A DNA stretch of 64,000 nucleotides from a virus. The position numbers were made by a program, and so were the translations under genes. Position 1 is the stretch's first letter, and each line of letters begins with the position of its first letter. The DNA lies in the IMG/VR virus record IMGVR_UViG_3300021963_004549, positions 5,904 through 69,903 of that record; one strand, 5' to 3'. Of this stretch, positions 9,523 to 37,410 are shown piece by piece. The notes beneath the pieces were generated by a model, which was given only the letters and a program-made list of their open reading frames with translations, was not told where the DNA came from and ran no database searches.

Positions 9523-10197
9523 TTATGGTAGTTGAGAATAATAATCCTCTTTAAAATGTGGATGTAACTCTATTACACCCTTTCTATCATCTAACACTTT
9601 ATCTGCCTGAGCTAATATCACTTCATTAGGTTGTATACCCATTCCAGATATATGTAATGTTCCCATACCCCAACGGTATAACATTGTTGTAGGGATGTTC
9701 TCGTATATTCTAGCATGGTGTCCAAATGTGATATCAGCATCCTCATCTCCTGATTTGTGGGGCCATGTGATTCTATCTAAGTAACTCTTAGTATAGATGT
9801 TTCCATTATTTATGTTGGAACTTATTCTCTCAAACTTATTGTTTACAAAGAAATAGTGATGTTGACTTCTGTAGATTTCATACCCACTGTTCAACACTAT
9901 TCCCATTGTAGCATCGCTGATTGCATTAGGTCCTAATAGATCATCATCGTCTAGTCTATAGATGTAATCGTTCTTACACTGTTTGTATCCCCATTTAAGC
10001 TTTGCAGCTATGGAAGGAAACCTTTCCTTAAGATTAAATATACGTATAGCAGGATGATTGTACGTATAATCCACTTCAGGATTATCATTTACAATAACCA
10101 TCTCAGCATCAGGTATAGGATTTTGTCTAATGAAAGACTCCATAGCTTCTTCAAGCAAGTGGTGTCTTTTATATGTGATTGTTAGTACGCTTATCAT
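9523..10197 (-). CDS. glycosyltransferase family 2
   Basis: MISVLTITYKRHHLLEEAMESFIRQN..AEMVIVNDNPEV N-terminal GT2 signature and later RLDDDD; start placed at MISVL (ATGA overlap with upstream gene). Confidence 0.6.
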   Translation of the reverse strand: MISVLTITYKRHHLLEEAMESFIRQNPIPDAEMVIVNDNPEVDYTYNHPAIRIFNLKERFPSIAAKLKWGYKQCKNDYIYRLDDDDLLGPNAISDATMGIVLNSGYEIYRSQHHYFFVNNKFERISSNINNGNIYTKSYLDRITWPHKSGDEDADITFGHHARIYENIPTTMLYRWGMGTLHISGMGIQPNEVILAQADKVLDDRKGVIELHPHFKEDYYSQLP

Positions 10198-10988
10198 TTT
10201 GGTAGTATTAGTCCTTTTTGAAAATAGGTAGGTAGAATTATCCAATCCTTACAGTACATCGAATCCCATTGATGGGGATACTCTGGACCAAACCATGTTT
10301 CAGGTGCTACGACAATCTTTTTAGCATTTCTACAAAGATAGGCAGCCCACCAACTAAACGAGCTGTTAGATATCACAAAGTTTTGACACATTGATAAGAT
10401 CCACAACTGTTCCTCTGGTTTATATCCTTCTAAGAAGAACATGTTAGGGAGATGTATGTTTTCTTTACACCACTCAATATCATCACTAGCTATTAGAAAC
10501 ATCTCTGTATCAGGTATTTTCTCAATAGCTTTGTATATATATTCTGGTGTGACCACTGGGTGGTAATTGGGAGAGTGTAAATAGTCACCTCTACGTACAT
10601 TAATCACTGTAACAATCTTCTTATGTAGATGAGGTAGTTCATTAATAATCCTTTCTACAAACTCTTGAGGAGGACCAAACAAACGTTTAATGTCTTCACC
10701 ATACTTCTCAAAATAACTTTCGCTTTGGTAGTATCCAAAATAGAACGTAGGTTTATCGTCTGAAGGAACTGCTAAGTTATAGTTTCTATTGTCCTGATAA
10801 GAGTCTACAAACTTTAACTCACGAAATATACTTTTTGAATAGTCATTCCCATGATAGATTACATGAGGTTTGTAAATAACAACCTGCTTATTATAGTCAA
10901 GCCCTTTTGCAAGAGCATGAGCTATCATAAACAAGTTGTTACCCAACCTGCCTCCTAATAGAGGCATTATATAATCTTTAGTTACCAC
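10194..10988 (-). CDS. glycosyltransferase family 11-like (alpha-1,2-fucosyltransferase-type)
   Basis: N-terminal GGRLGNNLFMIAHALAKGL resembles GT11 GGLGNQMFQYAF motif; real start probably MPLLGG at 10967. Confidence 0.5.
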   Translation of the reverse strand: MVTKDYIMPLLGGRLGNNLFMIAHALAKGLDYNKQVVIYKPHVIYHGNDYSKSIFRELKFVDSYQDNRNYNLAVPSDDKPTFYFGYYQSESYFEKYGEDIKRLFGPPQEFVERIINELPHLHKKIVTVINVRRGDYLHSPNYHPVVTPEYIYKAIEKIPDTEMFLIASDDIEWCKENIHLPNMFFLEGYKPEEQLWILSMCQNFVISNSSFSWWAAYLCRNAKKIVVAPETWFGPEYPHQWDSMYCKDWIILPTYFQKGLILPK

Positions 10989-13018: not shown

Positions 13019-13465
13019 TTACTTTAATCCTGTAGAACCAAATCCACCTTCACCTCTATTTGTATCTGATAGGGCTGTCACTTCTAAGAATGCAATGTTA
13101 TACACCTCATCTAGATAGAACTGTGCCACTCTATCACCTACAGCATAAGGGAAGTCTTGGTAGTCATCAGCAAATTCTTTCCCTGGTATTGCTGTAAAGA
13201 TAACCATCCACTCACCACGATAGTCAGCATCAATAATGCCTATAGAGTTGTTCATCACCCAGTTATACTTAGTTAAGTTACTACGAGGTACTAACACAGC
13301 TTTATAGCCTACAGGGATTTCTGTCTTAAACCCTAGACCAACAACAACCTTACCGTTTGCACTAGTAATACTATGTGCATACACATCATAACATGCTGCA
13401 TCTAAACTTCCTCTAGAGGGAACAATAGTGTTGTCAGAGATCTTTTTAAATTTCACTTGTAACAT
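13019..13465 (-). CDS. dut: dUTP diphosphatase (trimeric dUTPase)
   Basis: motifs AACYDVYA, RSNL, GIIDADYRGE; start at MLQVKF limits overlap with recA to 20 nt. Confidence 0.7.
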   Translation of the reverse strand: MLQVKFKKISDNTIVPSRGSLDAACYDVYAHSITSANGKVVVGLGFKTEIPVGYKAVLVPRSNLTKYNWVMNNSIGIIDADYRGEWMVIFTAIPGKEFADDYQDFPYAVGDRVAQFYLDEVYNIAFLEVTALSDTNRGEGGFGSTGLK

Positions 13466-14480
13466 CTTCTTCAGTTTTAATTTCAGTTTGGTTAATTTTG
13501 TTAATAATGCTAGTCTTGATTTCATTGTAAAACTCTTCGTTGTCTAACAACATAGCTTTAAACTCTTCAAGATCATACTTTGTTTCATTGAACGTGAATG
13601 TCTTACCATACTTCCTACCAAGTTCAAACTCGTTAAGAAGCTCCATAATCTCACCCACCTTATCAATACCCTCACCATATACAATATCAAATGCATGTAG
13701 CTTATAAGGAGAACTCATCTTGTTCTTTACAGCTTTCACCTTGGTAATATTACCGTAGTTTACATCACCTTCCTTAGCTAAGCTCTTGCTCACCTCTATT
13801 CTTACATCAGTGTAGAACTTCAATGCATGACCACCCTGAGTTGTTGTAGGGTTACCAAACATGACACCAATCTTCTCACGATATTGACTTACCACAATAA
13901 CACATACATTGTGTTGTGATAGGGCACCTTTTAGTTTTGGATATGCATTACTATTCAATCTAGCTTTGTAACCGATAGTGCTATCACCTACATCACCATC
14001 TAATTGTTTCTTAGGAATCAATGATGAATCTGAGTCAATGATAACAAGATCAACATCTCCTGTTTGAATCATTTCCATAGCAATGTTAAAGCCTTCCTCA
14101 CCGCAGCTTGGTTGAGCAATTAACATCTTGGTAGTGTCTACACCTAGAGCTTGGAAGTATTGCTTATCTACAGCATGCTCGCCATCTATATATAACACAG
14201 TGCCACCTTTCTTTTGACACTCTGCTACAGCATGACCACAAATTGTAGACTTACCTGAGCCTTCCCAGCCCATTAGTTCATACATCTTACCTTTTACAAA
14301 TCCTCCAGTTCCTAAAGTGATATGATCAAAACCAATACTCCCTGTACTGATAATGTCATACTCACCATCTGTTTTGCTTTCTAGTGTTAGGATTGTTCCT
14401 ACACCATAAGCTTTGTTTAACTTCTCAAGGGCTTCTTGATATTTACTTTTGCCCTCTGAGCTTTCCTTTGCTTTTGCCAT
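13446..14480 (-). CDS. recA: RecA-family recombinase
   Basis: GSIGFDHITLGTGGF, Walker A GWEGSGKST, LYIDGEHAVD, VIIDSDSSL Walker B. Confidence 0.85.
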   Translation of the reverse strand: MAKAKESSEGKSKYQEALEKLNKAYGVGTILTLESKTDGEYDIISTGSIGFDHITLGTGGFVKGKMYELMGWEGSGKSTICGHAVAECQKKGGTVLYIDGEHAVDKQYFQALGVDTTKMLIAQPSCGEEGFNIAMEMIQTGDVDLVIIDSDSSLIPKKQLDGDVGDSTIGYKARLNSNAYPKLKGALSQHNVCVIVVSQYREKIGVMFGNPTTTQGGHALKFYTDVRIEVSKSLAKEGDVNYGNITKVKAVKNKMSSPYKLHAFDIVYGEGIDKVGEIMELLNEFELGRKYGKTFTFNETKYDLEEFKAMLLDNEEFYNEIKTSIINKINQTEIKTEEDVTSEI

Positions 14481-19914: not shown

Positions 19915-21552
19915 TTAGTCAATATTTACGATTCTCTTAGAGATTTCTTGTCTTATTTCGTCAAGACTCTTAACAATTTTAAGTACTTCTACAGCAGATA
20001 AAGCAGGGAGATTGAACTCATACTTCTTAGCTTCTGCAATAAAGCCTTCTCTAGCTTTTGTACCTAAATTTTCCAATTCGCGAATTGCATAGCTCTCATC
20101 AAGCTCCATTGTATCAAAGTCTAGATCATGTAAGATTTCTGTTGCTTCTTCACGAGGAACAGTCATGATTGGTAAATACTCATAGCATCTACCCTTAGAC
20201 TCACCAATACCTACAACCTTCATTGGATTGATAAGTACAAGAACAGAAGTATCACCACAACCTACATAATGAATCTCATCACTAGTGAAGTGTAAACCTT
20301 CAGCACCACAATCATCAGTATTCCATCTACATTGCTCCATAGGCATGTTTACTGGTCTACCAATTCTGATGTCAAATGTCTTTGTGTGAGCATCTGTAAA
20401 TCTATTCTCTGCTCTATTAGGCAAATCAAGATAGAGTTCAGTTAGATTACCAATCATTTCACCATACTGGCTTTCTTCATTTGCATAAACCTTGCCTGTA
20501 CCATCACACTCTGGACACTCACAGCTATCGTCATAATAAGAATCAGTCTCTTCATCATATTCATCAGCCTCACAAGGAACAGTTCCATTTTCATCACAAT
20601 ATGTACATGGCTCTAACTCATAAAGAAGAGACTTAGCAACCATTTTATATTCACCATTTTTTAAGAATATAACATAATCAGATGGGTTCTTCTTCCATAC
20701 AGCTTTAGTTTTGTTGTAAGCATTGCTGATGAATTGTACCAGTTCTGTAGATCCATGTAATGTTACAACGTTACGTAATGCTACAAAGAATCCTTGCTTG
20801 GTGATACGGAAGCTATTCTTCTTTAGGAAGTTGTATAGCTTATCAGCCACCTCAGCTCTAGGATTTAAGCAACACCACATAAAGAAACGCTTAAGAGATT
20901 GATACTCTTCGTCTTCTTGTATAAGTTCATTCACCTCATCGATTTCTCTATCTGTTACATTATCCATAGAGTTGTAACTGTGATTACCAATAATACGTAA
21001 GAACTCATCTACCATCAAAGGTGGGATGCTTCTGTTGATTCCCTTGATATAAAGAGATCCGTCTTTCATCTCAAAATCATCAAACTTAGCTAGATACTCA
21101 GCACCTTTTTGAATAGCCTTGGCTTTCTCATATTTAGCCTGTGCTTCCTGCTTTTCCTTTAGTATATCTGGAGAACCTACAAGGGTCAACAAACAAGCTT
21201 CTGTCTTACATTCTCTGGCATTATTAAAGTCTTCTGCTGTAGCTTTAGACTTAGTGATGATAGAACCATCATTAAGCACCACTGTAAGCACATCATTCAC
21301 AATCTTAATATTGGAATAAGGCTTAGAAATAGGAACACTATTGTAAGTTTGATAGCTCGATTCTCCTGCAGGAATATTAATAATTGGATTCCACGCACCT
21401 GTAGTTGTTGAAAAATAAGATGGCTCTTTGCTCTCTCCTGGTTCTAAATGTCTTAATGTCTTCTCTAGTCTTTTAACTTCAATCTCATGTTGTAATTCAT
21501 CTAATTGCTTTTGTTTCTGGCTCTTGAACCAGTTTAAACTGAATAGTCCCAT
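19915..21552 (-). CDS. hypothetical protein with coiled-coil N-terminus and DnaJ-like CxxCxGxG zinc-finger repeats
   Basis: CTYCDENGTVPC and CECPECDGTGKV. Confidence 0.4.
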   Translation of the reverse strand: MGLFSLNWFKSQKQKQLDELQHEIEVKRLEKTLRHLEPGESKEPSYFSTTTGAWNPIINIPAGESSYQTYNSVPISKPYSNIKIVNDVLTVVLNDGSIITKSKATAEDFNNARECKTEACLLTLVGSPDILKEKQEAQAKYEKAKAIQKGAEYLAKFDDFEMKDGSLYIKGINRSIPPLMVDEFLRIIGNHSYNSMDNVTDREIDEVNELIQEDEEYQSLKRFFMWCCLNPRAEVADKLYNFLKKNSFRITKQGFFVALRNVVTLHGSTELVQFISNAYNKTKAVWKKNPSDYVIFLKNGEYKMVAKSLLYELEPCTYCDENGTVPCEADEYDEETDSYYDDSCECPECDGTGKVYANEESQYGEMIGNLTELYLDLPNRAENRFTDAHTKTFDIRIGRPVNMPMEQCRWNTDDCGAEGLHFTSDEIHYVGCGDTSVLVLINPMKVVGIGESKGRCYEYLPIMTVPREEATEILHDLDFDTMELDESYAIRELENLGTKAREGFIAEAKKYEFNLPALSAVEVLKIVKSLDEIRQEISKRIVNID

Positions 21553-21593
21553 TGTGTTTTGTTTTTTGTTTTAAAATAAATGTATTAAAAAGA

Positions 21594-21666
21594 GAAATAT
21601 ATTGCTCATTTGGGGGAAAAATGCATGAAATTTTAGAAAAATTCATGCAAATGAGCAATATATTTC
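21594..21666. promoter_or_regulatory. 73-bp nested near-perfect palindrome between two co-directional minus-strand genes
   Basis: 19-bp perfect arms gaaatatattgctcatttg / caaatgagcaatatatttc enclosing tgcatgaa / ttcatgca. Confidence 0.5.
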
Positions 21667-21674
21667 CTTTTTTG

Positions 21675-23990
21675 TTATAAATTCTCTACCAACTGCTCTA
21701 CAGAAGCTTCTGTTAACTCTTCTACTACCTCTTCATTAATACGAATGTTGTAGTGTTTCCAGTCAATTCTATGTCCATGATACTTGAATAGATCACGGAA
21801 TGCACTGATTATTGGAGAGTTATCATTATCATAACTCTGTATTTTGTCTGACATAGCTTCAATGAACGGTAATCTTTCTAGAAGGTTCTTCACTTCCACA
21901 TACTCATGATATATCTCCATATCAAATAAGTTATGTGTTTGAGCCACTTCTAGCATAGCTAAATGCACTGTATTATTACCATGGCAATGATGTTCATTCT
22001 TGTAACCATTTAGTCTTTGCATCTTTTCATACAAATCTGTAGAGATGAGACTTATTTTTTCTCTTCTAATGAATGATCTACTAAACTTATTATGTAATTC
22101 ATTAATTAGATAGGCTGTTACAATTCTCTTGAATGGTTTGTTTTTACCTTCCATAAACTTACTTAAAGGGATTAGATTGTGTATATCAATAGTAGATAGT
22201 GTCTTAAGTTCTCTCTCAGAGAAAACAGCTAGTTCTATCTTACTTTTATTGATAATTGAATATAGTTTATCCATAGTGGAGATATCTGCCTGGGTACCAT
22301 AGATAACAAGCTTGTTATACTTATGCATTTCAGCAAGGCCATAAATCTTGCTAACCAGTTTAGAATTCTTACCATCTACACTTCTTTCTAAATCCACTAA
22401 TTGTCTACCAATCACCTCACCTTCTAACTTAACTCTTCTCACCTTTGTTCCACCAACAGTAACAGTGATTCCCTTTTGCTTCTTCCTAGAATCTAGGAAA
22501 GCTTGTGGTATAACCATCTCATCAAGGTTGATAAAGGTAGATGTAAGAGAAGCTAATACAGTTTGAAACTCTGCAATAAGCTCTCTCCACTCAGTTCTTG
22601 GATAATTTTCCAAATCAAGAAGCTTCATGTAAGTGTCATAATCATTCATCTTTGTAAGACTACCCAATTTGAATGTCTTCACCTTTCTAATGAAATATGC
22701 ATGTCTGCTCTTTGGAGCTATACTCTTAATATAATCCTTCATAGCACCACTAATCTTCTCAGAATAGAAATAGTGTGGTTCATCGTTTCTGTTTATAACA
22801 TCAACACCACTTCTCCAATAGCTCTTCACCTGAGACATTCTACCATTGTAAAGCTCAAACTTCTTATCATACTCACCAAGGATGTATTCCTTGTTTCTGA
22901 CAAGTTTTTGTAAGTCAAGCTTCTTTAGACTGCTCACCCTAGGAGAAGCGATTAGAACACTACCATGTTTAACTAAATCACTTAAATCAAAGTTAGTATT
23001 CTTACCAGGAACATCAACATATCTTCTGTTTGTAGCATGATATCTCAATACAGCCATGAAATCATCAGAATCAGCAACAGTTTCATTGTATTTAGTAATA
23101 AAATGATCAACCATTTTACCAATCTTAGCTAGGATGATATCTTTAGCTTCCTTGGTATATCTGATGGATTCTCTATTTGGTGTAGGGAACAAACCATCTG
23201 TAAGACTAAATCTTAAACCTACAGGAACGCTTATTCTATCAATACCTAATCTAGTGAAATCCAATGGATAATACACGTTATCTAAACAAATATGTAAATA
23301 ACTATCTCTGGATAGGCTAGAAGCTTGATAGTGTTCTGATCTATGGATAGTGAAATCATTGCTCACCTCATTATCTAGTACATTGAAATACACGTTCTCA
23401 AAATAAGCTAGCTGCTCTTTAGTCTTACGTACAAAATCATGTCTATCGTAATAGTTGACTGGTATAGTCACCTTAACACCGTTTGGCTGATCTGTGGGAG
23501 TCTCATGAAGTAAATCAATTGAATTCACTTCTTCTCCCTCATACATCATGTATTTTCTTTCTGTTCCATTTTTCCTTGCAGTAAAATAGAAGGTAGATGT
23601 GTATGCTAGTGGGGCCTTAAAACCAAGACCCATCATGCCTAATTCTGTGTTGCTATTACGCTTTGTACTTTTACCATATTTGCTGATGATATTAACTACA
23701 TCATCTGCATCTAAACCAATACCAAAATCCTCTACAGAGAATTCATAGTTATCATGGTTATTCCTATTGAGGCTAACAATGATTGGTTTATCAATGCCTG
23801 CTCTTCTGTGACTGTCTAATGCATTAGAGGCACACTCACGAATGGTGGAACCTATTGCATCTGAATATAAATTCTTACTTAACATTTGCATTAGCACCTG
23901 AGCTGAGTCCAGGTCTAATGACATTCCAATTGATTCTTGTGATTCTCCTTCTTGTAGGATAGTTGCTTCTGTCTGTTTTTCTAGTATCAT
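21675..23990 (-). CDS. GHKL-superfamily ATPase domain protein (Bergerat fold; Hsp90/MutL/MORC-like)
   Basis: ECASNALDSH, EDFGIGL, GMMGLGF; no TOPRIM motifs in the C-terminal 500 aa. Confidence 0.5.
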   Translation of the reverse strand: MILEKQTEATILQEGESQESIGMSLDLDSAQVLMQMLSKNLYSDAIGSTIRECASNALDSHRRAGIDKPIIVSLNRNNHDNYEFSVEDFGIGLDADDVVNIISKYGKSTKRNSNTELGMMGLGFKAPLAYTSTFYFTARKNGTERKYMMYEGEEVNSIDLLHETPTDQPNGVKVTIPVNYYDRHDFVRKTKEQLAYFENVYFNVLDNEVSNDFTIHRSEHYQASSLSRDSYLHICLDNVYYPLDFTRLGIDRISVPVGLRFSLTDGLFPTPNRESIRYTKEAKDIILAKIGKMVDHFITKYNETVADSDDFMAVLRYHATNRRYVDVPGKNTNFDLSDLVKHGSVLIASPRVSSLKKLDLQKLVRNKEYILGEYDKKFELYNGRMSQVKSYWRSGVDVINRNDEPHYFYSEKISGAMKDYIKSIAPKSRHAYFIRKVKTFKLGSLTKMNDYDTYMKLLDLENYPRTEWRELIAEFQTVLASLTSTFINLDEMVIPQAFLDSRKKQKGITVTVGGTKVRRVKLEGEVIGRQLVDLERSVDGKNSKLVSKIYGLAEMHKYNKLVIYGTQADISTMDKLYSIINKSKIELAVFSERELKTLSTIDIHNLIPLSKFMEGKNKPFKRIVTAYLINELHNKFSRSFIRREKISLISTDLYEKMQRLNGYKNEHHCHGNNTVHLAMLEVAQTHNLFDMEIYHEYVEVKNLLERLPFIEAMSDKIQSYDNDNSPIISAFRDLFKYHGHRIDWKHYNIRINEEVVEELTEASVEQLVENL

Positions 23991-23992
23991 GA

Positions 23993-24358
23993 TTAGTATT
24001 TTACGTCGATGTTAAAGTTTTTTAGTGCTTCTTTTGCTACTCTGATGTCTTCTATGTCTATTTGGTTTGTAATGTTTTCTCTGTTCAATTTCATTATTCG
24101 TGTATCTCTTGGTGTGTTAATGTAACACTTCCAAAATCTATTTAACTTAAGAGGTTCTGTAGGTTTTCCTTGAGCAGTTAATTCTGCTGTTTTTACGTTA
24201 AAACGTTCCATACAATGCTTAACAGCATTAGGCATGTAATACTGAACAGTTCCTCCTATTCCTCTACCATAGTAAATACCTATTGAGAAATCATTACCAT
24301 TAGCAATAGCAATGAGGTCTCCCTTTTCAATTGTTTCTCCAAATCTAACTTTGTACAT
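23993..24358 (-). CDS. hypothetical protein
   Basis: ORF. Confidence 0.4.
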   Translation of the reverse strand: MYKVRFGETIEKGDLIAIANGNDFSIGIYYGRGIGGTVQYYMPNAVKHCMERFNVKTAELTAQGKPTEPLKLNRFWKCYINTPRDTRIMKLNRENITNQIDIEDIRVAKEALKNFNIDVKY

Positions 24359-24360
24359 AA

Positions 24361-24660
24361 TTAAATAGTTTTAATAAGTTCTGATTTTCTGATTTCTATT
24401 TTTTCATCCATGTGCATCATTAACATAACAAGCATTTCACGTGCTTCGTTATAGTCTAGTTCTATTACCTTCTTATCAGGAAATTTGAACTTAATACCAT
24501 TACCATCGTCTGTTAACTTTAATGCTGTTTCTCCTCCACATGTCCAATCTTTATGATGTGAGTATTTTAATGTGTCTACCGCACCTCCCATTATAAGATC
24601 GTAATCATATTCTAAATCTTCACTTCTGTTGTTTTCTACATACACTTGTAATTCTTCCAT
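24361..24660 (-). CDS. hypothetical protein
   Basis: ORF. Confidence 0.4.
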   Translation of the reverse strand: MEELQVYVENNRSEDLEYDYDLIMGGAVDTLKYSHHKDWTCGGETALKLTDDGNGIKFKFPDKKVIELDYNEAREMLVMLMMHMDEKIEIRKSELIKTI

Positions 24661-24670
24661 AATTTTAGTT

Positions 24671-25387
24671 TTAGAATGGCACTTTTTCTAGCCAATCGAT
24701 TTCTGTATTATTGTTTTCTTTTAATATCTTGTTTAGCTTAGTAAATACACCTTCTGTATCCCAATCAGTTTGCTTGTAAGAAGCACTGGCTGGATGACTT
24801 ACAGTGAATGACCAACTAAACGGTGGTACATATCTCTCATACTTGGAAGCATCTTTCCCTAAGAACAGAATAGGCACTCCTGTATAGGATAGCACCTCTT
24901 CAAATAAATACTTAGTGAAAGGTTCCCAGATATCAATATGTGAACCTGCTTTATTGATTTCAGTGGTTAAAGCTGCGTTATACATAAGAACTCCTTGTTT
25001 AGCCAAATAGGTAACATCTGGATTCTTTAGTATAGTGAGATTTAATCCCTCATACAACTCTTTTTCTATACCATCATAGAACTTTGTAAGAGAAGGTTGT
25101 AATATACCTGTTGTAGAACAGCCCATTAACAAACCTTCTGCTATAGGACTACCATTCTTTAATGTGTGGTAAGGGCACATACCCACCATAACCATTTTTA
25201 GGTCATCTAGTGAAGTCTCTAAAAAGCATCTATAAACATTAGGAGAAAGAGGAGCAATCTTCTTGCCCCTCTGACTCTCTGATTTTAGGAATTTATAGAT
25301 GTTATCACAAGCTTCACTTTCAATGAATGGCTGTATAAGTCTATGCCATGATGGATGAAATTGTGATTCAAATTTGTTCCAATTCAT
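24671..25387 (-). CDS. uracil-DNA glycosylase family 1 homolog, divergent (GQDPYH replaced by GMCPYH)
   Basis: collinear with E. coli Ung: SESQRGKKIAP..VYRCF..LKMVMVGMCPYH vs SERQSGVTIYP..VFNAF..VKVVILGQDPYH; SHPASAS vs HPSPLSA; GVLMYNAAL vs GVLLLNTVL. Confidence 0.55.
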   Translation of the reverse strand: MNWNKFESQFHPSWHRLIQPFIESEACDNIYKFLKSESQRGKKIAPLSPNVYRCFLETSLDDLKMVMVGMCPYHTLKNGSPIAEGLLMGCSTTGILQPSLTKFYDGIEKELYEGLNLTILKNPDVTYLAKQGVLMYNAALTTEINKAGSHIDIWEPFTKYLFEEVLSYTGVPILFLGKDASKYERYVPPFSWSFTVSHPASASYKQTDWDTEGVFTKLNKILKENNNTEIDWLEKVPF

Positions 25388-25388
25388 A

Positions 25389-26159
25389 TTAAAATAATTC
25401 TAATTGTTCTAATTGCATAATAACAGGCACCTCATCTTTTGGTGTATGAAGTCCTGAAGCATCTACAAAGAATGAATGTGCTTTAATGTGACTACTCATC
25501 CAGTTTGCAGGATGTGTTTCCTTCATAGCAAATGTTGTGTAGTTGTACAACTCCCATAAGCTATCAGGTGCACCATAATCATGTGTAGGGCTAGTTAATT
25601 CTCTGGTAATGATATTCAATTGTGTAGATGTAATGAACTGCTCTTCAATCATCATTCTACCAATCAATTCAGCTTTAACACGCTTAGTAACTTCCACTTG
25701 CTTCATTTGATCTCTCTGGAACTGAATAGTTCTAAAGCTTTCTCCTGCAGCCTTGATGTATTCACTAATAGCATTTGGTGTAAATGATTGTATCTCACCT
25801 ACGTGTTTCTTCTTAAATGCACCATAATCACCTGATACACAACCATTCTGACAAATCATAATGCGTGTACCTAGGGCAAACTTTAATGTAAGTTGCTTGT
25901 TGTAGCTATTCTGCCAGCCAATCTCTAATTGCATCTCACTATCCATTACATTCTTGATAGTAAATCTACCATTAGCAATCTGACCATTTGTACTAGCTGT
26001 GTATGTTTCTTTGTCTAATACAAATCCAGCCTTCTGAATGCCATCCATTGTAAGATCAATCAATTGACCGTGGCTAACTGGTTTGTAAGTTCTTGTCTGT
26101 GCAGGAATATCTGCTGCAAGAATCAATTCTTTCGTTGTGTTGTAGTTCTCAGTTTTCAT
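25389..26159 (-). CDS. hypothetical protein (replication/recombination module)
   Basis: ORF. Confidence 0.4.
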   Translation of the reverse strand: MKTENYNTTKELILAADIPAQTRTYKPVSHGQLIDLTMDGIQKAGFVLDKETYTASTNGQIANGRFTIKNVMDSEMQLEIGWQNSYNKQLTLKFALGTRIMICQNGCVSGDYGAFKKKHVGEIQSFTPNAISEYIKAAGESFRTIQFQRDQMKQVEVTKRVKAELIGRMMIEEQFITSTQLNIITRELTSPTHDYGAPDSLWELYNYTTFAMKETHPANWMSSHIKAHSFFVDASGLHTPKDEVPVIMQLEQLELF

Positions 26160-26306: not shown

Positions 26307-27329
26307 TCATAAAATGTGTTTTTGTTTTAAATAATCTTCAATAGATTGTAAACCATGAGCTTTTGCTAGATCAGCCCAGTCCTTTATACCCTCTGTTAGA
26401 TACTTACGGGGAACATTAGCATAATCAAAATCAAATAGCTTGGTAATCTGTTGTGAGTTAGTTACACCTGTAACATCGCTATCAAAACTGAGGATTTGTC
26501 TGTCAGAATTAGCTTTAAGATATTCTAGGTTCTCTGGAGAGAAACATCCAACACCTTCATTCTGTACAGCACAGCTACATGGAAAGATCTTCTTCATAAC
26601 CATATAGTCTTTCTTGCTCTTATTGATGAATGCCACCTTGCAATTAACTATGTCCTCTTTACCATCCATAGCGGTGATAGGAACATTGTTAGGTAACCAT
26701 TTGGTTTTCTTATCTCCAAACGGTGTATAAATCTTCCAATGTCCATCATAGAAATAACCAAACCTCATTTCCTGACCATTAGTGTAGAACAAACTTTTGT
26801 TCAAATACACCTTTTTGATAGAATAGACGTTGTTACTTTTTAGATCCTCTATATCTATATGATATTGATTCCAATAGGCTAACTCCTCTTGTGTAAACTT
26901 CTTTGTTACCACCTGGATGAGAGAATATCTCTTAACAGCATCTGGTTGTTTGTATTCAGCTGTTATTTTCTTGTATTGCTCTGTACCCTTGGTAACTATT
27001 CCTAATCCAAAATCTCTGTCTATAATCTTTAACACATCATTCATACTAGATAGATTGTGAAGGAGCTTAACAAACTCAAAACAATCACCTCTTTTACTGG
27101 TATCAGCAAAGTCAATAAATGATATAAAGCCCCTTTTATTCCCTATTACAAAGGAAGGATTGTTCTCATTCCTGAATGGAGAATAGGTCACTTGGTTAAG
27201 CTTCCAACTCTTATCAGGCATATAGAACCTAAATATATCATAATCAGTTATCTTGTCTAGTACGGACTCTGGTGTAAGCTTTGTTTTTCTTTTTCCGTTT
27301 ATCATATATATAAAGTTAAAACCCCCCAC
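26307..27329 (-). CDS. putative DnaG-like primase with degenerate zinc-binding domain
   Basis: YSPFRNENNPSFVIGNKRGFISFIDFADTSKRGDCFEFV parallels DnaG CPFHxEKTPSFsV..CFGCG..DvIdFv with the Cys/His ligands substituted. Confidence 0.35.
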   Translation of the reverse strand: MGGFNFIYMINGKRKTKLTPESVLDKITDYDIFRFYMPDKSWKLNQVTYSPFRNENNPSFVIGNKRGFISFIDFADTSKRGDCFEFVKLLHNLSSMNDVLKIIDRDFGLGIVTKGTEQYKKITAEYKQPDAVKRYSLIQVVTKKFTQEELAYWNQYHIDIEDLKSNNVYSIKKVYLNKSLFYTNGQEMRFGYFYDGHWKIYTPFGDKKTKWLPNNVPITAMDGKEDIVNCKVAFINKSKKDYMVMKKIFPCSCAVQNEGVGCFSPENLEYLKANSDRQILSFDSDVTGVTNSQQITKLFDFDYANVPRKYLTEGIKDWADLAKAHGLQSIEDYLKQKHIL

Positions 27330-35073: not shown

Positions 35074-37242
35074 TTAAAATAAACTTAATTGATTAGGATT
35101 GATTGTCACCTTTCTCTTTTTACCTTCTAACTGTATTTTGCTGATAATACGTTCAGCACGTTCTATGTAATAAGCATAATTGATGTTATCCAGAGGATGG
35201 TCTGGTGGTAGATGATTACATACATGCATCACCCATTCACCCGCTTCCACTTGTGCTACATCAGGAGCATTAGATTGACATTCAGGGTTTTTCACCTTTA
35301 ACAGCTTCTCACCCTTATTAGACACATAATACCTGATTAGCTTATTGTACACTGTTTTATTTGACTGTTTATTTCTTATGTCTGAGTTGGTAGAAGATAT
35401 AGCATTTTCAAAAGAGGTAGCCATTTTTTCATATGGTTCTCTATTATTGATCCACTCCTTTTTAATCCATATATCTGGTCCATATTCTACCCAACCATGT
35501 TCAATAAGGTCTGCTTTGGTTGATATTGAATAAAAGTTATTTATTCTTATTCCTTCATAATGGAAGTCTTTACTTGCTTTTTGTCTGAGACAAAAGTCAT
35601 ATATATTTGTATGATTATGAATGGTATCAGCCACAGGGACATCATTAACAAAATAATGCTCGAGAGCAATAGGTACAATCCTAGCTGACTTATTTTTGTG
35701 TAACTCAAAATCAGTGAGGAAGTCACCCTTCTTTTTAATTTCTCCATTGGTTTTAATTGCTAAATAGTCATTTACTGTTGAGAATATAATTCTTTGATAA
35801 TCAGTGCGTTCTAGCTCATATTGTGTAATGTCCATCCACCACTTATTAATAGCAGTCATAGTATCAAAACTTGCATTTTTTACAAGTATTGTCACTCCGT
35901 CTGTATTAGCAGATATTACACGTATGCCAGCTAATTCATATGCCTCAATAAGCATAAGTAAGCTCAGCTCACCTGTAATAGTGGTAAACATAGTTAGTTG
36001 TCTATCATAGAGCCAAGATAGCATATCAGAGCTTTTGCCATACACAGAGTTAACTGCAAGCTTCAATGCACCCACAATACCTGCTATCTTCTTATCCTTC
36101 TTAGCTAATGGTTTAAGTTCTAGTCTCTTCTCAAACATCTGTTTGTATCCTCTAAGAAACTCTTTACCCAAATGCTGTGGATATTTACCATTGTTAATGA
36201 TGATAGCTGGATAGTATGAACTAACATCCCAGTCAACTATGCTGTTATCTTCATCAGCCTCAAATATCTTGGGCTTATTCTCTGTATGCAAACCACCCTT
36301 GGCAAATGTATAAGTGTTACCCATAAATACCAATGACTCTTTAAAATCATCAGTGAGTGTGAATATCTGCTTCTTTACATGCTTTAGGAATGCTTGTAGC
36401 TCTGGTGTCTGGAAATCCACATAATGAGCAATACAATCTTTAGCTCTCACTTGCTTTCTGAAATATCCTTTCTTTGGTAAATCACCATATGACATACCCT
36501 TCTCTTGACAGTAATACTTCTTAATCATCTCATCACCTATCTTACTGTCAGAATAGTTTAAGCAAGGAATACCAAACTCGTTGTATATATTCTGTCTGAG
36601 CTCTATTTGATTATTATCCTTGTATAAAGGATGGTTTGTTTGACCAGTGGTTACCAAATAGAATTCATATGTAGCATATATATCATTACGACAATAGTCA
36701 ATAGTGAGCTGTATCTCCTCATCAGTCATATCAGTTTTAGTATGATGAATAGGCATCTCTTCAATGTTTGGAAGATCCATCTCAAACTCTAACCTCTTCA
36801 AGCTAACTCTACGATTCTTATTATCATAGTGATTCACTCTGAATAGGTCTATTTGTTTGAGGGTGAGCCATTCTTCTCTATACTCAGGAAATACATCATA
36901 GTTAGCATCATGTATCACATCAGCAGCTTTCTGTGCTATTTTAGCACACACTTCTAATGCACTTAGATCATACCAATCACCATGATTACGTAGCACCCAC
37001 TCAACCACCTGACTATCAAAGCGTAGATTGTTATATCCAACCCAATAGTAATCAGCATGTTCCTCTGTAAACCTTTGGAATGCATCTAATTGGTTAATGT
37101 TTCTACTTACCTGGAATTCATACCACTGCTGTGTATCAGGATTGTAAACTCCTATTAGAAACAGCTCTTGCATGGTTTCTATGTCATAGATGAGTATCTT
37201 CATTATTCTCTTTTTGTTGCTCGTTAAACTTCTTCTGTTCAT
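35074..37242 (-). CDS. DNA polymerase family B with 3'-5' exonuclease domain (T4-like N-terminus)
   Basis: Exo I ILIYDIET, Exo II YNNLRFD, Exo III YCRNDIYATYEFY, motif A DWDVSSYYPAII, motif B KLAVNSVYGKSS, motif C ISANTDGV; the ORF-track start at 37245 is a TTG, ATGs lie at 37242 and 37203 (MKILIYDIET). Confidence 0.8.
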   Translation of the reverse strand: MNRRSLTSNKKRIMKILIYDIETMQELFLIGVYNPDTQQWYEFQVSRNINQLDAFQRFTEEHADYYWVGYNNLRFDSQVVEWVLRNHGDWYDLSALEVCAKIAQKAADVIHDANYDVFPEYREEWLTLKQIDLFRVNHYDNKNRRVSLKRLEFEMDLPNIEEMPIHHTKTDMTDEEIQLTIDYCRNDIYATYEFYLVTTGQTNHPLYKDNNQIELRQNIYNEFGIPCLNYSDSKIGDEMIKKYYCQEKGMSYGDLPKKGYFRKQVRAKDCIAHYVDFQTPELQAFLKHVKKQIFTLTDDFKESLVFMGNTYTFAKGGLHTENKPKIFEADEDNSIVDWDVSSYYPAIIINNGKYPQHLGKEFLRGYKQMFEKRLELKPLAKKDKKIAGIVGALKLAVNSVYGKSSDMLSWLYDRQLTMFTTITGELSLLMLIEAYELAGIRVISANTDGVTILVKNASFDTMTAINKWWMDITQYELERTDYQRIIFSTVNDYLAIKTNGEIKKKGDFLTDFELHKNKSARIVPIALEHYFVNDVPVADTIHNHTNIYDFCLRQKASKDFHYEGIRINNFYSISTKADLIEHGWVEYGPDIWIKKEWINNREPYEKMATSFENAISSTNSDIRNKQSNKTVYNKLIRYYVSNKGEKLLKVKNPECQSNAPDVAQVEAGEWVMHVCNHLPPDHPLDNINYAYYIERAERIISKIQLEGKKRKVTINPNQLSLF

Positions 37243-37410
37243 CAATCAAATGCACCCAAATTATTGATATAATTGTTGCAAATGCAAAAGATGCTATAGA
37301 AGCTACTAAAAATGATTCCATGTTACTTGTCTTTAGTTTGTCTTAATACATCTATAACACCTAGAATTGCTACTATGCCTACAAGGCATACTATTATTAT
37401 TCCTGTCATG

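Follow-up and report, generated by a model that had tools for sequence, protein, structure and literature searches.

A phage homolog of family-1 uracil-DNA glycosylase with cysteine at the catalytic aspartate position: a possible uracil binder in a replication module

What becomes of a uracil-DNA glycosylase (UDG) when a virus replaces its catalytic aspartate and keeps the residues that contact uracil? The question is raised by an open reading frame (ORF) on the minus strand of a tailed phage, at 24671-25387 of a 64,000-nucleotide stretch (the window) that corresponds to positions 5,904 to 69,903 of IMG/VR virus record IMGVR_UViG_3300021963_004549. The ORF runs from ATG to stop and encodes 238 amino acids. 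An earlier note, made from the letters alone, described the product as a homolog of family-1 UDG (UNG) with Cys in place of Asp, which might bind uracil without cutting it, recognize an altered substrate or modified base, or use thiol chemistry. We found that the gene is under strong purifying selection, with the Cys maintained, and that this Cys is one state of a labile position within a phage clade. The reading we favor, to which we give about an even chance, is that a replication-module UNG ortholog lost the Asp and would still bind and flip uracil, with hydrolysis slow or absent.

Both fold and sequence mark the protein as a homolog of family-1 UNG. When it was compared by phmmer with all PDB chains, 57 of the 58 matches were family-1 UNGs, including those of Burkholderia (9pyv; E = 6.1e-17), Coxiella (3tr7; E = 8.5e-17), Escherichia coli (E = 2e-14), and human (E = 1.8e-9); the match to vaccinia virus D4 was weak (E ~0.01) and covered residues 131-234 only. 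An AlphaFold2 model built with 40 homologs as input (predicted local distance difference test [pLDDT], 83; predicted template modeling score [pTM], 0.84) retrieved family-1 UNGs only among its top 50 Foldseek matches, with template modeling (TM) scores of 0.69 to 0.82, and its matches in BFVD were viral UNGs. These comparisons agree with the earlier note on family membership and on collinear alignment through the water-activating loop, the specificity Asn, and the leaving-group His loop; length and single-domain architecture are likewise those of E. coli and human UNG. The top library match was phrog_12143, a family of unknown function (E = 1.6e-31, with residues 9-232 spanning positions 5-227 of the 227-position profile). 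The Pfam UDG score, 20.3 bits, is under the curated cutoff of 24.3, and the NCBIfam Ung equivalog models gave 75 to 117 bits against cutoffs of 143 to 237, under every one. Because the defining catalytic feature and the curated thresholds of the family both fail, we did not file the protein as a UNG equivalog.

In the alignments to UNGs of known structure, the canonical loop GQDPYH lies over GMCPYH (residues 69-74; 25166-25183, minus strand, as for all motifs below). Cys71 (codon TGC, 25175-25177) thus stands at the catalytic Asp position (E. coli D64, human D145) and Met70 replaces the preceding Gln, as first described, while the Pro-Tyr pair, with Tyr73 equivalent to E. coli Y66, and His74, at +3 from the Cys, are retained. 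A canonical Asp elsewhere in the loop was looked for, and residues 66-85 contain none. The segment AEGLLMGCS (residues 83-91; 25115-25141), equivalent to E. coli AHGLAFSVR, carries Met88 in place of the uracil-stacking Phe77 (GLLMG versus GLAFS), an assignment that falls in a low-confidence region of the model. A remnant of the Pro-rich DNA-pinching loop, QPSL (residues 97-100; 25088-25099), includes Ser99 (E. coli Ser88), which is invariant across 40 homologs. In the uracil-specificity strand, GVLMYN (residues 132-137; 24977-24994), Asn137 aligns under the Asn of LLLN (E. coli Asn123). The leaving-group His loop, HPASASYK (residues 198-205; 24773-24796), aligns to HPSPLS; it keeps His198 (E. 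coli His187) and Pro199 and has Ala202 in place of the intercalating Leu191, for which the invariant Tyr204 of the same loop might substitute. The Gly-Ser loop of UNG is Gly-Lys here, with a 4-residue insertion after it. The earlier note had not mentioned the differences at Phe77, at Leu191, and in the Gly-Ser loop.

Two ways in which this active site might have been rebuilt were considered and set aside. Residue 84 is Glu in the window protein and Asp in most relatives and aligns to E. coli His73; it is not a relocated catalytic carboxylate, because it is equally conserved in relatives that retain the catalytic Asp. A disulfide or metal site involving Cys71 was also rejected: Cys27 and Cys54 do not covary with it, and Cys90 is conserved whatever the residue type at position 71.

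The earlier note called the catalytic Asp universally conserved. That holds for cellular UNGs, which keep it, but not for the protein's own phage clade, which has D, S, C, E, G, A, or N at this position. An exhaustive search of cluster representatives (50% identity) gave 5,618 matches at E ≤ 1e-3 and 140 at E ≤ 1e-30, and residues were counted in the 137 full-length sequences among the best 150 representatives: D, 57; S, 21; C, 20; E, 17; G, 6; A, 4; N, 4; K, 3; P, 2; T, 2; and V, 1. The uracil-specificity Asn and leaving-group His persist through these changes. Cys-type representatives retain Asn137 in 20/20 and His198 in 19/20, Ser types in 19/21 and 18/21, and Asp types in 57/57 and 56/57, respectively. 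Since the Asp position varies while the Asn and His persist, we conclude that the pocket is under selection and the carboxylate is not. A neighbor-joining tree built without the motif columns requires approximately 50 parsimony changes at this position and intermingles the Cys, Ser, and Ala types near the query; the tree is a coarse one and its sampling leans toward the query sequence, but the qualitative picture, a retained uracil pocket with an optional carboxylate, is robust. Residue +3 varies with the type: His accompanies Cys in 17 of the 20 representatives and in 10 of 12 Cys-only clades; of 34 Asp-only clades, only 4 have it, and Asp types mostly have Pro (38/57).

Members of the same clade in cultivated crAss-like and Flavobacterium phages (crAss001 gp74, DAC15 gp053, and FpV4 gp54; approximately 28 to 31% identical to the window protein) have GQDPYP with an intact His loop. 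At the other extreme, g042 of the crAss-like Cellulophaga phage phi14:2 (8980-9690 of locus L005), which is annotated as a UDG, has GKEPYR and has also lost the catalytic His (AEDPIQ); the family can therefore persist without its catalytic residues. This last gene lies directly after a cluster encoding gamma-glutamyl cyclotransferase, ATP-grasp, COOH-NH2 ligase, Gn_AT, and amidoligase proteins (L005 3345-8989).

Is the Cys-type gene orthologous to a gene that still has the Asp? The closest Asp-type representative (P0125) is 49% identical and has VCQDPYF, and its IMG/VR relatives (loci L074-L079) occupy the same slot in clearly related phages, in the order primase, UNG-like gene, homolog of a 121-amino-acid ORF, RIIA, RIIB, HNH, exonuclease, RecA, and dUTPase. 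An Ala-type ortholog (GMAPYH) with the same synteny is found in another locus (L081). Differences fixed between the Cys clade and the Asp-type orthologs are G69/C, M70/Q, C71/D, H74/F, L86/V, L87/A, G89/D, and M135/L; because they cluster at the active site, we regard the Asp-to-Cys change as part of a local remodeling that made the pocket encoded by a single orthologous gene more hydrophobic. In one of the sister loci (L077 9989-10720) the gene is Asp type (VCQDPYF) and has lost the leaving-group His (NQPDSAIY for HPASA), so either catalytic residue can be lost in this slot. Two candidate second UDGs, in loci L017 (5644-6219) and L029 (3246-3875), proved to be GIY-YIG homing endonucleases encoded near or just upstream of the UNG-like gene. 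Similar GIY-YIG sequences are apparently fused to UNG-like proteins in two representatives (P0137, 524 amino acids; P0138, 385 amino acids); these may be real or gene-calling artifacts.

The pattern of selection on the gene argues against decay. A word-indexed search found at least 1,296 homologous proteins at E ≤ 1e-3; of the top 120, all ≥70% identical, 118 carry GMCPY and 2 carry GMAPY. Cys71 is invariant in 64 IMG/VR relatives that are 57 to 100% identical, with the codon TGT in 59 and TGC in 5; the window itself has TGC and contigs with a 100%-identical protein have TGT. The median ratio of nonsynonymous to synonymous substitution rates (dN/dS) is 0.096 (716 pairs), and 72 of 238 columns are invariant across the 40 homologs, Tyr73, His74, Ser99, Asn137, and His198-Pro199 among them. 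A dN/dS of ~0.10 together with those 72 columns rules out a pseudogene or drift. Because so many columns are invariant at the same divergence, invariance of the Cys is unexceptional. Two intact, distinct homologs (P0089 and P0095; ~72% identity; multiple contigs) have Ala for Cys, a replacement that requires two nucleotide changes.

The Cys-type protein was found in viral contigs only. No relative was found in the 185,579 species-representative bacterial and archaeal genomes of GTDB, and among deposited phages megablast gave no close match and tblastn at most ~32% identity. A host or cellular origin was rejected on the GTDB result; there is likewise no near-identical relative among the deposited phages. 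The source pipelines annotate all these proteins as uracil-DNA glycosylase.

How might such a protein work? In canonical UNG, loss of the Asp alone (E. coli D64N, human D145N) lowers the rate by roughly three to four orders of magnitude. We propose that the window protein would bind DNA and flip uracil into a pocket that has lost its general-base and electrostatic Asp, now Cys71, and retains residues that recognize the base: Tyr73 would exclude 5-substituted pyrimidines, Asn137 would read the uracil face, and His198 would contact O2. Because Tyr73 and Asn137 are retained, the ligand is probably still uracil. The glycosidic bond would be cleaved slowly or never, by analogy with the Asp-to-Asn mutants, and the role would be that of a sensor, shield, or scaffold for uracil at the replication fork, beside the primase and B-type polymerase, rather than fast bulk repair. 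The earlier proposal of binding without cutting is thus favored here in the form of binding without efficient cutting; what we infer is binding itself, how much of the rate has been lost, and association with the replisome.

Known proteins offer several parallels. Human UNG D145N/H268N, an engineered dead enzyme, binds uracil-DNA specifically, like the wild type (PMC4756853); it has lost the Asp, like the phage protein, and is our functional model for the proposed role. It differs in that its His is also gone; the phage protein still has the His, is natural, and is under purifying selection. Vaccinia virus D4 has an essential processivity role that is independent of catalysis (PMC1936997). D4 and E4, the poxvirus UDGs, are viral family-1 UNGs with altered loops (in D4, GIDPYP, and HPAARDR without the Leu) from genomes that encode a B-family polymerase; D4, however, keeps the Asp and is an active UDG, and it is tethered to the polymerase through A20, whereas no A20-like adaptor was identified for the window protein. 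The departures of D4 are shared by Asp-bearing members of the phage clade (representatives P0121-P0270), which have GxDPYP for GQDPYH and HPA(A/S)AxR/Y for HPSPLS. This hints at either an evolutionary link or convergence between the phage UNG-like proteins and the poxvirus processivity-factor UDG. Gamma-herpesvirus UNG is reported to be a structural element of the replisome (PMC5934625). In phages, PolA-UDG fusions survey the template in front of the polymerase, and a similar mode of docking is predicted for phage UDGs encoded in trans (bioRxiv 10.1101/2025.03.26.645540). We propose that, in its working, the window protein would be most like an engineered dead-UNG uracil sensor or a D4-type replisome UNG.

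Several observations weigh against this reading of a uracil binder with weak hydrolysis. The AlphaFold2 model is poor in the active-site stretch, residues 71-95, with pLDDT of 51 to 56 over residues 71-90. The leaving-group His of canonical UNG is mainly a transition-state catalyst; since its equivalent, His198, is near-invariant after loss of the Asp, bond cleavage could still be selected. The co-occurrence of Cys and His74 may point to a substitute means of activating water or to a dyad. An Asp is also dispensable at this position in other UDG families, which have Asn (families 2, 3, and 6) or Ala (family 5), and even a UNG slowed 1000-fold would match ordinary glycosylases. Association with the polymerase rests on co-location with the primase and a probable PolB in one module. 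Finally, a second, canonical UDG was sought, and neither the window nor 241 related loci (3.6 Mb) contained another UDG-like ORF, which speaks for our reading, but ~40 kb of the genome lay outside the stretch examined.

Of the alternatives, the one that survives best is a competent UDG, in which His74 together with Cys71 or its thiolate activates water and His198 assists the leaving group, giving ordinary excision, perhaps at a moderate rate. We consider this rather unlikely, while giving it real weight. The invariance of His198, Asn137, and Tyr73, the association of His at +3 with Cys and of Pro with Asp, the Asp-less UDG families mentioned above, and a genomic dUTPase that fits a strategy of uracil avoidance are all in keeping with it. 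So is the behavior of UdgX, whose H109C, H109S, and H109A variants all turn over as ordinary UDGs once water enters (kcat of 0.062, 0.058, and 0.024 per min, respectively; PMC10359453). Set against these points, three of the changes (Gln to Met, Phe to Met, and Leu to Ala) take away side chains that in UNG favor catalysis and flipping; the interchange of Cys, Ser, and Ala and the natural Cys-to-Ala lineages show that the side chain is dispensable as a base; the Asp is retained in cellular UNGs; and its frequent independent loss in phages suggests relaxed or reversed selection on rate.

An improbable alternative is that the protein is a shield or decoy, a functional analogue of Ugi and p56 that occupies uracils in replicating phage DNA or titrates a host factor and so blocks the abasic sites and breaks made by host UNG. 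Retention of the binding residues with loss of the cutting residue, recurrent across the clade, would suit such a role, and phages are known to benefit when uracil excision is blocked while they replicate, as with phi29 p56. Stoichiometric shielding would be costly, though, and in sister phages the same slot holds an Asp-type, presumably cutting, ortholog, which would have the opposite activity. The changes in the Leu loop predict altered Ugi-type surface contacts but are uninformative on decoy function.

Less probable still is a pocket retuned for another base, whether a modified phage pyrimidine or a damaged base, with the protein acting as reader or glycosylase. The second-shell changes relative to Asp-type orthologs (Q70M, F74H, V86L, A87L, D89G, and L135M) would make the pocket more hydrophobic and sulfur rich, and Met88 in place of Phe would loosen stacking. 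Yet neither Asn137 nor Tyr73, which sterically bars 5-substituents, varies; no base-modification gene (hydroxymethylase, thymidylate synthase homolog, or other) was detected in the 64-kb window; and the dUTPase and ribonucleotide reductase (RNR) suggest ordinary deoxynucleoside triphosphate pools. The earlier suggestion of an altered substrate or modified base thus found no support.

Thiol covalent chemistry, also raised by the earlier note, fares worst and is disfavored. Cys71, activated by His74, would attack C1' or the abasic aldehyde to form a UdgX- or HMCES-like link or a retaining glycosyl-enzyme intermediate. In UNG, according to the alignment, the position of Cys71 faces C1'; the Cys is invariant over 57 to 100% identity with both codons used; Cys and His74 co-occur; and UdgX establishes that the superfamily can evolve covalent capture. 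UdgX resembles the window protein in belonging to the UDG superfamily, and its nonhydrolytic chemistry at C1' is a precedent for noncanonical outcomes, but it is family-4-like, with motif A GEQPG and a nucleophile, His109, on an R-loop insertion (KRRIH) that the window protein lacks. An obligatory thiol role is disfavored because Cys, Ser, and Ala types interchange on the tree, because Ala replaces Cys in the two intact homologs noted above, and because UdgX H109C does not crosslink (PMC10359453); the Ala-type ortholog in the same synteny and the unexceptional invariance of the Cys point the same way. We regard such chemistry as very unlikely. In a specific version that we hold to be just as doubtful, a Cys71-His74 thiolate-imidazolium dyad beside C1' would capture the oxocarbenium ion or abasic aldehyde after slow, His198-assisted departure of uracil, as a thioglycoside or hemithioacetal, possibly reversibly. 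If this were true, the phage UNG would keep hold of abasic sites at the replication fork and protect them. It would then have evolved, independently and on a family-1 scaffold, a function like that of HMCES or UdgX, and would be the first DNA glycosylase with a Cys nucleophile.

The window comes from a tailed phage of 35% G+C; related contigs are 111 to 119 kb, and the uncultivated lineage has genomes of ~114 kb. Its replication module is encoded on the minus strand, with gene order kept in relatives: divergent DNA polymerase, DnaB-like helicase, superfamily 2 helicase, Sak4, a 290-amino-acid ORF, primase, DUF932 protein, UNG-like gene, two small ORFs, RIIA, RIIB, HNH, exonuclease, RNR, RecA/UvsX-like protein, and dUTPase. 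The 10 kb past the 3' end of the window contain structural genes. The polymerase (35074-37245) matches phrog_1252 (8.7e-141) and has no Pfam match; its similarity to the B family is marginal (archaeal PolB 1qht, E = 0.006; NF004416 type B polymerase, E = 0.003), and it is probably a very divergent B-family enzyme. The primase (26307-27329, minus strand; phrog_12622, 1.5e-33) is the conserved upstream anchor of the UNG-like gene, as judged by synteny. Between them lies a DUF932 gene (25389-26159, minus strand; PF06067, 1e-6), 1 nt upstream of the UNG-like gene. A DUF932 gene occupies this upstream position in 47 of 65 loci and is not found beside the Asp-type orthologs, and it was rejected as an obligate partner.

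Immediately downstream (23993-24660, minus strand) are two small ORFs of 99 and 121 amino acids, the latter also following the Asp-type orthologs. The downstream anchor, inside the replication module, is the RIIA/RIIB pair (19915-23990, minus strand), an arrangement kept in all related loci: RIIA-like (21675-23990; 771 amino acids, HATPase-like; phrog_612, 5.4e-56) and RIIB-like (19915-21552; phrog_609, 8.9e-16). The dUTPase that the earlier note had pointed out is present (13019-13525, minus strand; phrog_135, 1.3e-41). As listed, its ORF overlaps the end of the RecA/UvsX-like ORF (13446-14480, minus strand) by 80 nt; the profile match begins at residue 20, which makes an internal Met the probable true start.

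The UNG-like genes of crAss001, DAC15, and FpV4 also lie in a replication module, near a primase and followed by exonuclease, RNR, and dUTPase genes, but their immediate neighbors are unrelated to those in the window; homology between neighboring genes was sought for these loci and for that of phi14:2, and none was found. A relationship to defense systems was rejected, there being no PADLOC match. At the edge of the module, overlapping genes at 9523-10988 (minus strand) encode GT2 (PF00535, 2.4e-11) and GT11 fucosyltransferase-like (PF01531, 3.3e-30) proteins, whose target might be the host surface, the virion, or DNA. A 288-amino-acid ORF with leucine-rich repeats (LRR_4, 3.6e-7), unusual for a phage, lies at 4781-5647 on the plus strand, near an endolysin gene (1007-1603).

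Full-text literature searches returned no account of phage family-1 UNGs that naturally lack the Asp. Interest in the finding is tempered in that a UNG at the replisome has been proposed before, viral precedents exist, and no new chemistry is demonstrated. What stands out is the replacement, across a widespread clade found only in viruses, of an Asp regarded as invariant in this textbook enzyme, with the pocket under strong purifying selection. The public label of uracil-DNA glycosylase probably overstates the activity of these proteins, natural variants of which could serve as uracil sensors or base-editing accessories if they are uracil readers. The toggling among Asp, Cys, Ser, and Ala in one replication-module slot points to selected uracil recognition without fast excision, and would extend catalysis-independent replisome roles of UNG from poxviruses and herpesviruses to bacteriophages: a classic repair enzyme probably turned reader or pseudoenzyme across a large viral clade.

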